Shown in pieces: positions 12 through 10,025 of a stretch of 64,000 nucleotides of DNA (the first letter of the stretch is position 1; every line of letters starts with the position of its first letter). The DNA comes from a virus: IMG/VR virus record IMGVR_UViG_3300009151_000053, positions 1 to 64,000 of that record; one strand, 5' to 3'. Both the position numbers and the translations under genes were made by a program. A model generated the notes under the pieces. That model did no database searches, was not told where the DNA came from, and saw only the letters and a program-made list of their open reading frames with translations.

Positions 12-611
12 ATGCCCTCTGTATTTTTGACATCTGATACACACTTCGGTCATGCTGGAGTGTGTCGCTTTCTTACCAACACTGGTGAGAAGTTGCGCCC
101 ATGGGACAATCCAGATGATATGGACGAAGATATGGTGAAGCGGTGGAATGAAACCGTGAAGCCAAACGATAAGGTCTATCATCTTGGTGATGTTGTGATC
201 AACCGCAAGGCTCTGGCTATTATGCATCGCCTTAACGGTGATAAGGTGCTGATCAAGGGCAACCATGACATCTTTAAGTTGGATGATTATACGCAACACT
301 TCCGTGAGATTCGTGCATACCAGGTTATGGACGGTATGATTCTAAGTCATATCCCTATCCATGAAGCAAGTCTTGGAAGATTTGGCACGAACATCCACGG
401 ACATCTGCATAGCAATCGTGTGATGAAGGCCAACGGCTTTGACAAGAAAACTGGTCAAGTGCTGTATGGAAATCAGATCGATCCAAGATACATTAGCGTT
501 TGTGTAGAAGCCACAGACTTTCGTCCTATTTTATTTGAAGAAGTGAGGCAACGTATCATCGACCAAGGTGGAACTGTCGGATTTAAGAACGGAAACGGTC
601 CCACTATGTAA
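12..611 (+). CDS. Calcineurin-like metallophosphoesterase
   Basis: Motifs SDTHFGH, HLGDV, KGNHD, LSHIP and IHGHLH. Confidence 0.9.
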
Positions 612-1164
612 GGGTTCTGCCTCGAGTCCAATCAGGTCCGGGGCAGTCTTTTACTACTTTGTTGATATAGCCATTAGTCCACCAAATGGCACCAATGCGT
701 TTTGTTCCAATAAGTTGTTTAGTAGATTCGGATAACTTTTGACCTGTTTTACTTTTGCTACCTTTGGCATTTTGATTGCCTGTGGCACGAATCGATCTCG
801 CTTTACACATATCTTCTGTATATACAGTATTTTTTGCAAGTTGATTTCCTAACAAACGAATAGACGACTGATGTCTATGTTTAATCGATGGAATCCACCC
901 GGACACACCATCTCCTCCATCAGTTTTGTTATACAATATTCCAGAACTTAAATCTTTTCGTCCATACCAACGGATATATCTACGCTCTAATGCACATGCA
1001 CCAATATCTGATAAGTTCGTTTCTAAGAATATGATCTTTGATTTGTCTTTGGGAACAGACACATTATGTTGTGGTGAATATGCTCTGTTGCCTTTTCCTT
1101 TACCAATATAGTAAGGCGTTCCATCAGATTTTCTGACATAGGCATAGACGTAATAAATAAACAT
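604..1164 (-). mobile_element. Free-standing GIY-YIG homing endonuclease (Seg-like)
   Basis: N-terminal YVYAY...PYYIGKG..RAY, catalytic-type ALERRYI and YNKTDGG; basic NUMOD-like C-terminus; antisense to its neighbours; AAGGAG RBS. Confidence 0.85.
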
Positions 1165-1233
1165 TGCTGATACTCCTTGAAAGTGTTAGAGTCTGTGGAT
1201 ATTGACGTATCGTGACAGACACTTCTATTTATA
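1165..1233 (-). promoter_or_regulatory. T4-type late promoter plus structured leader of GIY-YIG gene 1
   Basis: TATAAATA on the minus strand at 1233-1226, then a GTCTGT/ACAGAC stem and TCTAACACTTTCAAGGAGTATCAGCA before the ATG; second copy at 2700-2771. Confidence 0.75.
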
Positions 1234-1259
1234 TTTTTCAGGAAACTACTAAATAATGA

Positions 1260-1382
1260 TTGCCATTCGCTCGGTATCATAGTATATTGAGTGAGTAAGC
1301 CGATGCGCTGAGGCTTAGAAGCGCCGTGAAACGTAGAGAACGGAATGCACGAAAGACATTCGCTGGATTGCGTAACCAGCAC
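1260..1382 (+). ncRNA. Candidate structured non-coding RNA, family not recognised
   Basis: Non-coding; lies between ACTAAATA (1248-1255) and TATAAATA (1384-1391); five adjacent stems and a possible pseudoknot. Confidence 0.5.
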
Positions 1383-1383
1383 T

Positions 1384-1391
1384 TATAAATA
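1384..1391 (+). promoter_or_regulatory. T4-type late promoter
   Basis: Exact TATAAATA upstream of the cell wall hydrolase gene. Confidence 0.7.
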
Positions 1392-1520
1392 GTATCTTAA
1401 CCAGATCGTAAAACGCGGTCTTTATTGAAAACACCCTACACACTTTTGTACGGTGGTTCTTCGCTCCCTATCCTATCAGTTTAGAGAAGAGAATGTTCGA
1501 AGACAAATAAAGGAAGAATA

Positions 1521-2075
1521 ATGACGAATGGATTCAAGCAATCTAAAACCCTTCAAGACATCTTTGTTGGTATTGCAATATCTCTCGCACTAACACTGAC
1601 TGTCCAACAAGTGTTCCATAGACCATCGGAACCAATAGTTATTGAAAGACAAGTTATCGTTAAAGTCCCAGTCTACCTAAGTGTGCAAGATAAGAAGCAG
1701 ATCAAGTGTCTTGCTGATAATGCATACTTTGAGGCTGGTAATCAAACAACAAGAGGAAAGATTGCCGTCACTAATGTCGTAATGAATAGGACAAGTGACG
1801 ATAGTTTTCCAAGTACTCCATGTGGAGTTGTCAAACAAAAGAAGCAAGGTCGTTGCCAGTTCTCATGGGTCTGTGAGAAGAAAAAGGTAGTTGACGTTGA
1901 TGTTTACACAGAAAGCAAACGAGTTGCCGAACAAGTTTATATCCAAAACATTGGAGATGTAACTGCTGGAGCAACGTTCTACCATGCCAATTGGATGAAA
2001 ACTTATCCTTTTTGGTCAAAGGTATTTAAGCAAACGGTAAAAATAGAAGATCATATATTTTATTCAGAATCATAA
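1521..2075 (+). CDS. SleB-like cell wall hydrolase (Hydrolase_2 family) with N-terminal membrane anchor
   Basis: CLADNAYFEA, AVTNVVMNR, CQFSW, GATFYHA and HIFY motifs; hydrophobic N-terminal segment. Confidence 0.9.
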   Translation: MTNGFKQSKTLQDIFVGIAISLALTLTVQQVFHRPSEPIVIERQVIVKVPVYLSVQDKKQIKCLADNAYFEAGNQTTRGKIAVTNVVMNRTSDDSFPSTPCGVVKQKKQGRCQFSWVCEKKKVVDVDVYTESKRVAEQVYIQNIGDVTAGATFYHANWMKTYPFWSKVFKQTVKIEDHIFYSES

Positions 2076-2699
2076 AGAACATTTATTTGATGTGATGTGT
2101 TGTCTGTAGTTTCCTGGATTAAAACCTTTGCCACATTTAGCACACACATTTTTATTTTGTTTTTGAAAATCACTTATGGCTTTCTTATGAAAATCTGTTC
2201 TCGGCGGTATTGTCTGTAGTTTTCTTTTATCTTTTATTTTGTTCTTTGTTTCTTGTGACATAGGTCTTCGTGCTGATGGATTTGGCACTCCTGTTTTAGT
2301 TTTTTTCATTTTCTCAATAACATCTTTAGGCCTTGGTTTTCCTAAACGAGATTCTTTGAGTTTTTGTTTTGTTTTTTCAGAACAAGGATGACCTTTCAAC
2401 CCCGTCTTTCCTTTATTCCAAGGTGTTCTTCCGGCAGCAGTTTCTCCACCGTCTGTCATATTTCTTAATATTCCAGTGTTATTATCTTTTCTTCCATACC
2501 AACGAATATATCTTCTTTCTAACGCAAGAGCGCCAAGTTCTGAAAGATTTCTTTCCATTATTATGATTCGTTCTTTTTCAGAAGGAAGATTTACTCTATG
2601 CTCGTTTGAATATGCTCTTTTGTTTTTACCTTTACCGATATAATAAGGCGTGTTATCTTTTCTAAGATAAGCATACACATAATAGACATAAATACTCAT
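2070..2699 (-). mobile_element. Free-standing GIY-YIG homing endonuclease with NUMOD3-like repeats
   Basis: [53 protein letters not shown] and a C-terminal CxxC; start placed at ATG 2699 because AAGGAG precedes it; AT-rich. Confidence 0.85.
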
Positions 2700-2771
2700 T
2701 GCTGATACTCCTTGCAAGTGTTAGAGTAGATGGAGTTCTGGGGAGTCCTCGCGATCTACATTCTATTTATA
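2700..2771 (-). promoter_or_regulatory. T4-type late promoter plus structured leader of GIY-YIG gene 2
   Basis: TATAAATA on the minus strand at 2771-2764, a GTAGAT/ATCTAC stem, then TCTAACACTTGCAAGGAGTATCAGCA. Confidence 0.75.
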
Positions 2772-2819
2772 AAAACTTGAAACCAACACCACATCTTTTA
2801 TAGAGAAGGCTAATACATC

Positions 2820-3065
2820 ATGGAAGAAATCGTACTAGAAAAGGCTCTATCGAGTGAAAAGTTTACAGCCGATATTGAAAATCTGATTGCACAACATAAA
2901 CTTAACTATGTTGATGCGGTCATTCATTATTGCAACATCAACAACATTGAAGTCGAAAGCGCAGCCACAATAATCAAGCAAAATCTTAAGATGAAGGCTC
3001 AACTAGAGTCTGAGTATGAGAGTCTTAACTATTTGCCAAAGCGGGCTAAACTGAACTTCGGATGA
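2820..3065 (+). CDS. 33: Late promoter transcription co-activator, T4 gp33-like
   Basis: F..DIE...LNYVDAVIHYC..NNIEVE...LNYLPK pattern; 81 aa; synteny 33-59-32. Confidence 0.85.
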   Translation: MEEIVLEKALSSEKFTADIENLIAQHKLNYVDAVIHYCNINNIEVESAATIIKQNLKMKAQLESEYESLNYLPKRAKLNFG

Positions 3066-3655
3066 GAGTTGCTATGACTCCCTTTGAGACTTACAAGACA
3101 TTCGTTGCTCTTAAGGCACACTTTGAGACCAATTATGATTATATTAAAAATAATGGTAATACAAAAAATATCACACAAGATGTCTTTAAACAGAGAAGAG
3201 ATGCCAACTTCTTTTACAAAATAGCCAGACATAAAGACTCGAAAAACTTTATGCTGGCTAACTTTGTTGGCAATTCTATTTCTTATGCTGGTGATCTAGC
3301 AACTGATAAAGCGGATGTTGTATATTCAGACTGGCTTAAGCGGCAGCAGGCTATTACATATATCTTTACTGAAGACTGCAATAAACTATTGACAAACTTC
3401 AATGAAAACTTTATAGTAAAGAGTGGGCAGAGACCACATGCATTGAAGTTATACTTACAGAAACAGATCAGTATTGAAACACTGATCATTTTGAATGACA
3501 TATGCAAGTTCTTTCCACATTGGAACAAGACAATCACTGAAACGATTATCTGGCCATCAATATATAAGAAGTGCATTAAATATAAACCGTTCTTTCGTTA
3601 TGACACTGCAAAGTGTAAACAGATCATGAGAGACATATTTACAGGTGATGAATGA
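3062..3655 (+). CDS. 59: DNA helicase loader, T4 gp59-like
   Basis: MTPFETYKTFVALKAHF..NYDY, ISIETLIIL and KYKPF motifs; synteny. Confidence 0.85.
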   Translation: MRVAMTPFETYKTFVALKAHFETNYDYIKNNGNTKNITQDVFKQRRDANFFYKIARHKDSKNFMLANFVGNSISYAGDLATDKADVVYSDWLKRQQAITYIFTEDCNKLLTNFNENFIVKSGQRPHALKLYLQKQISIETLIILNDICKFFPHWNKTITETIIWPSIYKKCIKYKPFFRYDTAKCKQIMRDIFTGDE

Positions 3656-8842: not shown

Positions 8843-8869
8843 TATAAATATCATCATACTCTATTTATA
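8843..8869. promoter_or_regulatory. Face-to-face pair of late promoters
   Basis: TATAAATA on + at 8843-8850 (towards the HNH gene) and on - at 8869-8862 (towards the tail-tube-like gene). Confidence 0.65.
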
Positions 8870-8881
8870 AAGGTTACTCCA

Positions 8882-9442
8882 ATGATTCATAAACATCATA
8901 TTATTCCCAAGCATATGGGCGGCACAGACGACACAGATAATCTTATTGAATTGAGTGTTGAAGAACATGCAGAAGCGCATAGAATGCTTTATGAACAACA
9001 TGAAAGAAAAGAAGATTATCTCGCTTGGAAAGGATTATCTGGACAAATTGATAAAGAAGAAATATTAAAAGAAATATATGTAAAAAATGGAAAAAAATTA
9101 GGTAAAAAAAATATAGGAAGAATTCCTTGGAATAAAGGATTAACAAAATCAGATCCAAGAATTAAAGCGAGTGCTGATAAAATGTGTAAACCAAAAACAG
9201 AAAAACATAAACAAGCACTGCGTAAACCAAAATCAGATAAAGGTAATATAGGAAAATACGAAAGAACGGATGAAACAAAACAAAAACTGAGAGAAGCGAA
9301 TGTTTTACGGTTTAATGAAGAAGGTCGCAAAAAACACTCGGAAATAATAAAAAACAATAGAAGAAAATGCAGTTATTGTGATATGGTATCAAATGTATCA
9401 AACATAACCAGACACGAAAAGAAATGTCCTAAATCTGTCTGA
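8882..9442 (+). mobile_element. Free-standing HNH homing endonuclease (Mob-like)
   Basis: HKHHIIPKHMGGTDD..NLIELSVEEHAEAH, PWNKG, NUMOD3-like repeats and a C-terminal Zn knuckle; very A-rich; antisense to the operon. Confidence 0.85.
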
Positions 9443-10025
9443 TTTTTTTCTTGCTATCAGCCCAAACCTGTGATGTGGTTGCTTTTTCAAACCTGGCTGT
9501 AGGAAGCATCAGGGCAATATCCCATTCAGATGGATACACATACATCATCTTTGATCTAACATGGCTTGTCAGGTAGTGCTTGATGCATGGAGAGAAATAT
9601 TTCAGAGTTGACACTTTAGATAGCAGTTCATAGTTCAGTTTCAGTTTGGTTGATTCATCATATCTGCTATTGTTTGCATATTCATACAGCCCATCCATCA
9701 ACTTCGCTCTGAGTTGTGGTGGCAGATAGTGCAGATTCAATCCTAGAAAGCCGCCTGGAATCTTCTTGAATGGAAAGATCAGTGGAAATCTGTCATAGAA
9801 TGGCAGTGTGTCTTTGTGCTTTGGATCGTAATAGAACATGTACATCTGTCCAGGCAACGGCTCTTTCTGGAGCCTGTCTTTATCAGAGTTCAACAATGAT
9901 CGTTCGTTGATGCTACTGATCTTGCCAGCAGTTGTACGAAACCAATCACGCGCCTCTTTAGTCCGCGCTGGAATCTGTCCAGAACGAACGCCTTTAGTGA
10001 TGATTGTATCAAATACATTTGCCAT
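9429..10025 (-). CDS. 2: DNA end protector protein, T4 gp2-like
   Basis: GQMYMFYYDPKHKDTLPFYDRFPL, GLNLHYLP, CIKHYL and VWADS. Confidence 0.92.
   Translation of the reverse strand: MANVFDTIITKGVRSGQIPARTKEARDWFRTTAGKISSINERSLLNSDKDRLQKEPLPGQMYMFYYDPKHKDTLPFYDRFPLIFPFKKIPGGFLGLNLHYLPPQLRAKLMDGLYEYANNSRYDESTKLKLNYELLSKVSTLKYFSPCIKHYLTSHVRSKMMYVYPSEWDIALMLPTARFEKATTSQVWADSKKKIRQI

Follow-up and report, generated by a model that had tools for sequence, protein, structure and literature searches.

The window analysed here is the first 64 kb (64,000 nt) of an 82-kb metagenome-assembled contig of a T4-like freshwater (lake) phage (IMG/VR record IMGVR_UViG_3300009151_000053). Close to its left end, a gene for a cell-wall hydrolase of the SleB/CwlJ type is followed by a convergent gene for a putative GIY-YIG-type endonuclease and then by the late-transcription coactivator gene gp33. 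We consider it very probable that positions 1988-2787 are a mobile homing cassette of ~800 nt, in which a replacement for the 3' end of the hydrolase gene (28 codons and a stop codon) is combined with the convergent endonuclease gene and a leader with a predicted late promoter, and that the cassette would spread by a mechanism of the kind described for the WHO elements of yeasts.

The initial annotation had reported that the hydrolase gene ends in one version of an HIFY motif while another version lies stranded beyond the endonuclease gene, and reading the window confirmed both. The gene ends at 2052-2075 with CAT ATA TTT TAT TCA GAA TCA TAA (HIFYSES and stop), and positions 2790-2813 read CAC ATC TTT TAT AGA GAA GGC TAA (HIFYREG and stop), followed by 6 nt (TACATC) and the gp33 ATG at 2820. 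The open reading frame (ORF) of the hydrolase matched Pfam Hydrolase_2 (PF07486; E 4.9e-22; score 78.9 bits, cut-off 27) over profile positions 2-100 of 100 and PHROG 938 'endolysin' (3.2e-20), and as the Pfam match extends to residue 181 the protein is a full-length member of the SleB/CwlJ type. The frame of the second copy contains a TGA at 2778-2780 and has no start codon, so the stranded stretch (2788-2813) is untranslated; read from the sequence, it contains the Shine-Dalgarno element of gp33, GAAGG (2805-2809). Positions 2788-3100 of the window have 85.9% identity over 313 nt to a cassette-free IMG/VR locus (L083), and the first 26 nt from 2788 (ACCACATCTTTTATAGAGAAGGCTAA) agree at 26 of 26 positions with the genuine hydrolase 3' end in L083. 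Because this match is to a real gene end and runs on into 313 nt of homology, the second HIFY copy is not a chance occurrence. The last codons of the present gene had also been described as AT-rich and fond of ATA in the manner of the cassette, and this holds. The G+C fraction is 0.40 for the body of the gene and 0.28 for its final 30 codons, and the endonuclease gene has 0.33. ATA encodes both Ile residues of the tail, as against 2 of the 10 in the body and 6 of the 12 encoded by the endonuclease gene. The break in composition expected in the gene's 3' part was located at ~1988.

Empty sites were found among close relatives. L083, the closest relative in IMG/VR (gp33 90% identical; the contig starts inside the hydrolase gene), reads ...FYHATYVHPFWADIFDRTTKIGDHIFYREG (...KIGDHIFYREG) and stop, then TATATC (6 nt) and ATG, which is the form predicted for a site without the cassette, with HIFYREG directly before gene 33. 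Identity between the window and L083 is 86.3% over 1843-1987, and the stretch from there to 2788 is unmatched. Contigs from public sequencing runs were aligned to the window, namely X1, a run from the window's own source sample, and X2 and X3, runs of other studies (the small-share runs X4-X24 were left out as habitat evidence). A 5,254-nt X3 contig matched 1400-1989 (28 differences, ~95% identity) and 2788-3126, and it skipped positions 1990-2787 (798 nt), carrying 54 other letters instead, the same length as the native segment of L083. The left junction of the occupied form was bridged by X2 contigs with 1-2 differences (1900-2290, 2 differences). Thus ~800 nt (1988-2787) occupy the place of 54-55 native nt, with breakpoints fixed within 2 nt. 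The replaced stretch is the 28 codons plus stop at 1988-2075, and the native 54-55 nt between the FYHA codons and the remnant were lost.

In more than 40 further relatives the hydrolase ends in HIFYR, HIFYRG, HIFYKG, HIFYAG or similar, with the start of gp33 3-15 nt further on. Endings of the HIFYR/HIFYK type, which had been described as usual for SleB-family enzymes, were found in every phage relative examined, and none of the relatives without the endonuclease ends in HIFYSES. As judged from these alleles, the ancestral state is shown to be a hydrolase gene ending in ...(D/A)HIFYR(E)G, a few nt, and gp33. Cultured phages gave no close comparison: megablast of positions 1200-3100 against 50,697 GenBank phage records returned zero matches, and tblastn found only relatives below 60% identity.

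The present tail is homologous in protein to the native tail of L083 and far from it in nucleotides. Between the window and L083 the tail has 63% nucleotide identity and a proportion of synonymous differences (pS) of 0.74, which is saturated, whereas the hydrolase body has 84% nucleotide identity with 0.56 synonymous substitutions per synonymous site (dS) and gp33 has a dS of 0.86. A different codon is used at 7 of the 16 residues conserved between the two tails.

A second occupied site (L147) was found by searching with the endonuclease, on a 35-kb contig from a different sample. Its gene order is a hydrolase ending in ...KWMKTYPMWSNKFKKTTRIESHIFYSDS and stop, a convergent endonuclease gene, a leader, a remnant and gp33, and its remnant reads GCA CAC ATT TTT TAC AGA GGC TAA (AHIFYRG and stop), 5 nt before gp33. 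The resemblance between the two sites is confined to the cassette. The hydrolase body (61% nucleotide, 46% amino-acid identity), gp33 (63% and 40%) and gp59 (59% and 38%) are distant, whereas the carried tail (76% and 55%), the endonuclease gene (79% and 73%) and the leader (82% nucleotide identity) are closer. Accordingly dS is 0.67-0.89 in the cassette (0.89 in the tail) and saturated in the flanks (3.4 in the hydrolase body). The 5' and 3' parts of the hydrolase gene have discordant histories, in that the dS patterns against L147 and against L083 are reversed. In both sites the cassette ends ...AAAC(C)CCAACA, and native sequence begins with the codon that precedes His. Several positions and one codon distinguish the two remnants, and each is like those of its own lineage, REG and stop being found in L083, L084 and P0002 (a relative described below), and RG or TG and stop in the L147 relatives L290 and L291; the displaced native 3' fragment thus matches the recipient lineage in the window and in L147.

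On this sequence evidence, the present tail is part of the mobile unit, a homologue of the native tail that has diverged from it and travels with the endonuclease gene, since synonymous sites are saturated between the two tails and the same pairing of tail and endonuclease recurs in L147. The initial annotation had held that the cassette displaced the native tail and supplied a recoded one. Displacement and supply stand, and the part that has to be given up is recoding in place (pS of 0.74 and the same tail in L147). Both endonuclease ORFs are intact, with a ratio of nonsynonymous to synonymous rates (dN/dS) between the window and L147 of 0.21, and 0.09 in the catalytic domain; judging by the two sequences, the endonuclease has been kept working in both lineages.

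A further observation concerns X1, which holds an L147-like variant of the cassette on a 2,956-nt contig, with 36 differences over 2484-2760, a gap of 6 nt at 2682 and, at 2760, a loose end (ATTATATTTAGAAAACAGAAAACCCCAACA). The sample of the window therefore contains two co-occurring cassette-bearing phage types.

The endonuclease ORF starts at an ATG at 2699 with AAGGAG 8 nt upstream, and its stop codon and the final sense codon of the hydrolase gene are reverse complements of one another, so that the two genes overlap by 6 nt. It matched PHROG 314 'homing endonuclease' (1.6e-13). In its first 100 residues, YVYAY...PYYIGKG, R28, E61 and N80 are invariant across 10 homologues. The Pfam GIY-YIG profile (PF01541) scored 15.3 bits, below the cut-off of 22.6, a profile search of PDB sequences reached GIY-YIG proteins at E 0.006, and the best 11 Foldseek matches of the structural model were all GIY-YIG domains (probability 0.72-0.92; E 0.06-0.5; predicted local distance difference test score 78-92 in the domain). 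Single-sequence searches of PDB and Pfam did not place the nuclease at significance. These signals, each weak alone, agree on a nuclease that is probably of the GIY-YIG type. After the catalytic domain, matches to NUMOD3 (PF07460; E 0.12) and zf-C2H2 (E 0.045) both fell below threshold, and a C-terminal CxxC...H...C motif is common to the endonucleases of the window and L147.

On the minus strand of the leader (2700-2787), a motif search located TATAAATA, known as the consensus of T4 late promoters, at 2771-2764. No plus-strand TATAAATA and no sigma-70-like site was found in 2700-2819, so that no compensating gp33 promoter was seen inside the cassette. In the whole 64 kb TATAAATA occurs 11 times where 5.2 are expected (11 were reached in 1 of 100 shuffles), and 5 of the 11 sites lie beside the hydrolase gene or one of the three endonuclease cassettes. 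The leaders at 2700-2760 (-) and 1165-1222 (-) in the window and at 2944-3003 in L147 share TCTAACACTTnCAAGGAGTATCAGC, preceded by a hairpin whose stem differs between copies by compensatory changes (GUAGAU/AUCUAC vs GUCUGU/ACAGAC). Folding energies of the hairpin are no better than those of shuffled sequence (z ~0), and the support for it therefore comes from the compensatory changes in the stem.

The position of the cassette coincides with the conserved parts of the locus. A conservation scan of 30 non-identical cassette-free relatives, from the last hydrolase domain to gp33, found only two strongly conserved nucleotide blocks, TTYTAYCATGC (FYHA) and ATTGGnGnnCAYATYTTYTAYAGAGG (IG.HIFYRG). 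The cassette starts right after the former and ends inside the latter. The IG.HIFYRG block would make a stable target because it is doubly constrained, its AGAGG/GAAGG serving also as the Shine-Dalgarno element of gp33, and for the same reason the last 26 nt must remain before gp33. The carried copy, freed from this duty, can end in SES or SDS in place of R(E)G. Within the presumed target block (ATTGGAGACCACATCTTTTATAGAGA) the carried tail differs from the native one at 7 of 26 positions, and it is for this reason probably immune to cutting.

Homing would then take place in mixed infection, where the endonuclease would cut cassette-free hydrolase alleles in or next to the most conserved block of the tail, near the (D/A)|H codon boundary (equivalent to 2787/2788 of the window), and the break would be repaired from the cassette-bearing genome. 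The right broken end would pair with the remnant of the donor, so that the recipient's own sequence from the cut onward becomes the new remnant. The left end would be resected past the poorly matching tail until homology is reached at or before the FYHA block; because the donor tail is too diverged to pair before this block, the native 54 nt would be lost and the donor tail co-converted. The carried tail would keep the hydrolase at full length, and the remnant would persist as the ribosome-binding site of gp33 and as the right homology arm.

A relative with an intermediate tail complicates this account. P0002, a 184-aa hydrolase on a 53-kb contig with a body ~91% identical to that of the window, ends in ...FYHASWMKTYPFWSNVFDRTTKIGDHIFYREG (HIFYREG), and at the protein level its tail is a hybrid in which the cassette-like SWMKTYPFWSNVF is joined to the native DRTTKIGDHIFYREG. 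It may represent either the allele type that once supplied the cassette tail or an allele left by conversion after contact with the cassette. Proteins with a cassette-type tail were also found on other contigs (P0001, P0003).

The same layout could in principle have arisen without import of a tail, if the element had inserted with a local duplication of the tail and the upstream copy had then diverged in place, through relaxed constraint or escape from cutting. The protein homology of the carried tail to tails of the same sub-clade (WSK.F..TVKI.D.IFY in L084 and L083) is compatible with such an origin, and P0002, as a close relative that has SWMKTYPFWSNVF natively or as a hybrid, would allow the tail to have originated in this clade. 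Against this, the tail is saturated at synonymous sites while the hydrolase body and gp33 have a dS of only 0.56-0.86 and the remnant is identical at all 26 positions; the X3 contig, 95% identical in the flanks, still has the native 54 nt, so that the event is recent relative to the divergence of the tail; and the same tail and endonuclease are linked in the very different background of L147. We regard recoding in place as quite unlikely. An assembly chimera at the junctions, or a second HIFY string arisen by chance, is more improbable still and can hardly be credited. The window is a metagenome-assembled contig, and two endonuclease genes with shared leaders lie within 3 kb, where a 72% repeat (935-1192 vs 2467-2727) could mislead an assembler, but the contigs that bridge the left junction come from an independent study (X2), the same architecture was assembled independently from another sample in L147, proteins with this tail occur on the further contigs named above, and the remnant is a real gene end that continues into homologous sequence.

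It is also conceivable that the cassette is a relic moved passively by ordinary recombination, with crossovers in the FYHA and HIFYR blocks, and that its endonuclease is inactive or does not target this locus. Both boundaries abut conserved blocks able to support recombination without a cut, phage nuclease genes often mark recombination boundaries (PMC10448857), and cutting at this locus is inferred from sequence. These homology blocks are just 11-20 nt long, however, and the two backgrounds, with only ~60% identity, have native sequence up to one and the same nucleotide at the junction. The intact ORFs and low dN/dS in both lineages, lowest in the catalytic domain, likewise speak against a relic, and the layout matches that of elements shown to cut the host gene, WHO6 (PMC7282813) and, as far as the citing passage describes it, the Allomyces element (cited in PMC3630166). 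Passive transfer is on balance unlikely. The reading of an active homing cassette nevertheless has several points to contend with. Only two occupied backgrounds are known, and the right junction they share could be an inherited junction combined with crossovers very near to it and not one defined by a cut. Enzymes of the Seg/I-TevI type within the GIY-YIG group can cut away from the insertion point, and the assignment to that group itself rests on sub-threshold scores together with conserved motifs. The hybrid tail of P0002 is not predicted by the simple model.

The closest parallel is with the WHO elements of Torulaspora and Lachancea yeasts (Coughlan et al., 2020, eLife, PMC7282813; Osborne et al., 2026, bioRxiv 10.64898/2026.08.13.744650). 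In the model for these elements, the endonuclease cuts the sensitive allele and repair takes place from the occupied chromosome, with the downstream donor fragment as right homology arm; the recipient is left with a host gene that is chimeric and resistant, with the endonuclease gene, and with a fragment, beginning at the cut, of what was formerly its 3' end (PMC7282813). The phage unit likewise combines an endonuclease gene with an alternative 3' end of a host gene. The 3' end has been replaced so that a chimeric, presumably resistant, full-length gene with an element-derived 3' end stands directly before the endonuclease gene, the old 3' end has been pushed downstream as a non-expressed fragment and presumed homology arm, the 5' and 3' histories are discordant, and empty alleles coexist with occupied ones, here among close relatives with flanks of 86% (L083) and ~95% (X3) identity. 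There are also differences. The yeast nuclease is a LAGLIDADG protein with a zinc finger, related to HO/VDE, whereas the one here is probably of the GIY-YIG type and without homology to it; the yeast elements act on a nuclear gene in meiosis and replace ~140 codons, whereas the phage cassette would act in mixed infection and replaces 28. The phage remnant is just 26 nt long and overlaps the ribosome-binding site of the next gene, the endonuclease gene is convergent with its own predicted late promoter, and there is no cluster of successive elements. Cutting was shown for WHO6, whereas the phage case is known from sequence alone. The features that strictly define the WHO family (a HO/VDE-like LAGLIDADG protein with zinc finger and the host gene FBA1) are absent. 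On this analogy the phage cassette is an element that works like a WHO element and is not a member of the WHO family.

Comparable 'gene hybrids' are formed by mobile ORFs (mORFs) of fungal mitochondria (Beaudet et al., 2013, PMC3630166, and works cited there), the cases being atp6 of Allomyces macrogynus, atp6, atp9, cox2 and nad3 of Glomus sp., atp9 of Rhizopus oryzae and cox2 of Mortierella verticillata (PMC3630166). They share with the phage cassette the order of a foreign C-terminal piece joined in frame to the core of the host gene, then an endonuclease ORF, then the native C-terminus, and also a native C-terminus nearly identical to that of the closest relative where the inserted one is more diverged (64-81% vs 91-98%; here 63% vs 86-100%). 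The element in Glomus atp9 encodes a GIY-YIG enzyme. The mORFs differ in their mitochondrial setting, in lying on the same strand as the host gene, often in phase or fused with it, and in longer remnants, none with a role in the start of downstream translation. The third group to be compared is that of the free-standing T4-type seg/mob endonucleases and their 'intronless homing' (SegF, SegG, SegB and MobE; review PMC2988022). As in those cases, a free-standing gene, here probably of the GIY-YIG type and with its own predicted late-class promoter, lies in a T4-like genome, a conserved gene would be targeted, and inheritance would come with co-conversion of flanking host sequence; the order 33-59-32 found here is also the T4 neighbourhood that holds segG. 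The T4 cases are intergenic or split a gene into two polypeptides, whereas the present element lies inside a coding sequence and would be made harmless by the tail it carries. Neither a carried replacement gene end nor a stranded native end is described in that review, phages are not mentioned in the WHO papers, and our literature search, whose limited coverage is not proof of absence, found no phage report of this layout. Replacement of 3' ends is thus known from yeast nuclei and fungal mitochondria, and its phage form is apparently undescribed in the literature searched.

In this window gp2 has had its end exchanged in the same way by a cassette of another kind. The HNH endonuclease gene of that cassette is convergent to gp2, whose present end is ...SKKKIRQI and stop. 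A stranded native end (AAGAAGAAGGTTAGAGGGTAATG) lies at 8799-8779 and reads AAG AAG AAG GTT AGA GGG TAA TG (KKKVRG and stop), its TAATG overlapping the next ATG. In the cassette-free loci L273 (on the same contig as L083) and L255, gp2 ends in ...SKKKVRG with TAATG. Back-to-back TATAAATA motifs were also observed in the gp2/HNH cassette, at 8843-8850 (+) and 8869-8862 (-).

Whether these cases reflect a general strategy we judge to be evenly balanced. Beside introns/inteins and intergenic insertion, phages would host a third way for endonuclease genes to reside inside essential coding sequence, namely cut-resistant 3'-end cassettes at gene/ribosome-binding-site junctions, with lineage-native scars that mark the cut and with unrelated nucleases (GIY-YIG at hydrolase/gp33, HNH at gp2), and homing of the WHO type would be old and widespread. 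The hydrolase cassette illustrates how a free-standing endonuclease gene can invade the interior of a phage gene with neither intron nor intein, by means of a spare gene end, and it would connect phage Seg-type elements, yeast WHO elements and fungal mitochondrial mobile ORFs as one convergent strategy. For annotation, short stranded gene ends beside endonuclease genes would be scars and not genes, and gene tails that adjoin endonuclease genes may be xenologous. For phage evolution, mosaic gene ends would arise in this way, with endonuclease genes marking the boundaries of exchange. The left end of the remnant predicts the position of the cut, which makes an uncharacterised site-specific nuclease testable. 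The features of the locus, as read here, are collected in Table 1.

Table 1. Positions of the hydrolase/gp33 locus, its neighbours and the gp2 locus in the window.
Feature	Position	Strand	Basis
Phosphoesterase, at the left end of the window	12-611	+	
First endonuclease, predicted GIY-YIG type	604-1164	-	
Chimeric cell-wall hydrolase, SleB/CwlJ type, 184 aa, N-terminal membrane anchor	1521-2075	+	PF07486, PHROG 938
Native part of the hydrolase, ending at the conserved ...ATFYHA block (TTCTACCATGC)	1521-1987	+	Identity to L083 and X3
Probable cassette-borne replacement tail, NWMKTYPFWSKVFKQTVKIEDHIFYSES and stop	1988-2075	+	Divergence from native tail, G+C content
Second endonuclease, predicted GIY-YIG type, 209 aa, convergent to the hydrolase	2070-2699	-	PHROG 314, motifs
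Endonuclease leader with predicted promoter, right end of the probable cassette (...AAACCAAC)	2700-2787	-	Motif search, identity to L147
Native 3' end of the hydrolase, left stranded, (D)HIFYREG and stop	2788-2813	+	26/26 match to the L083 gene end
gp33, late-transcription coactivator, 81 aa	2820-3065	+	PF16805, E 1.1e-14
gp59 (followed by a 300-aa protein and then gp32)	3062-3655	+	
HNH endonuclease	8882-9442	+	
gp2	9429-10025	-	

The first endonuclease cassette of the window was considered as another exchanger of gene tails and rejected, because 18 relatives show the present tail of the phosphoesterase to be the usual one and 1165-1520 contains no copy of it. The endonuclease ORF of this cassette overlaps the phosphoesterase gene by 8 nt and crosses a GC-rich hairpin (CTGCC...GGCAG with a T-run, ~618-655) that looks like the terminator of the phosphoesterase gene, and TATAAATA occurs at 1233-1226 (-). 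Nine related endonuclease loci (L147-L156) were screened for a convergent gene together with a stranded tail, and L147 alone had both. In L089, which has an empty hydrolase/gp33 junction, a sequence like the endonuclease leader was observed at 2269-2345 (76-78% identity over ~84 nt), ~600 nt upstream of the hydrolase match, and its placement suggests a cassette at the position of the first one of the window. Finally, positions 1248-1391, put forward in the initial annotation as a candidate structured RNA, form a GC-richer non-coding stretch that lies upstream of the hydrolase gene, between the promoter of the first cassette and a TATAAATA motif on the plus strand (1384-1391).

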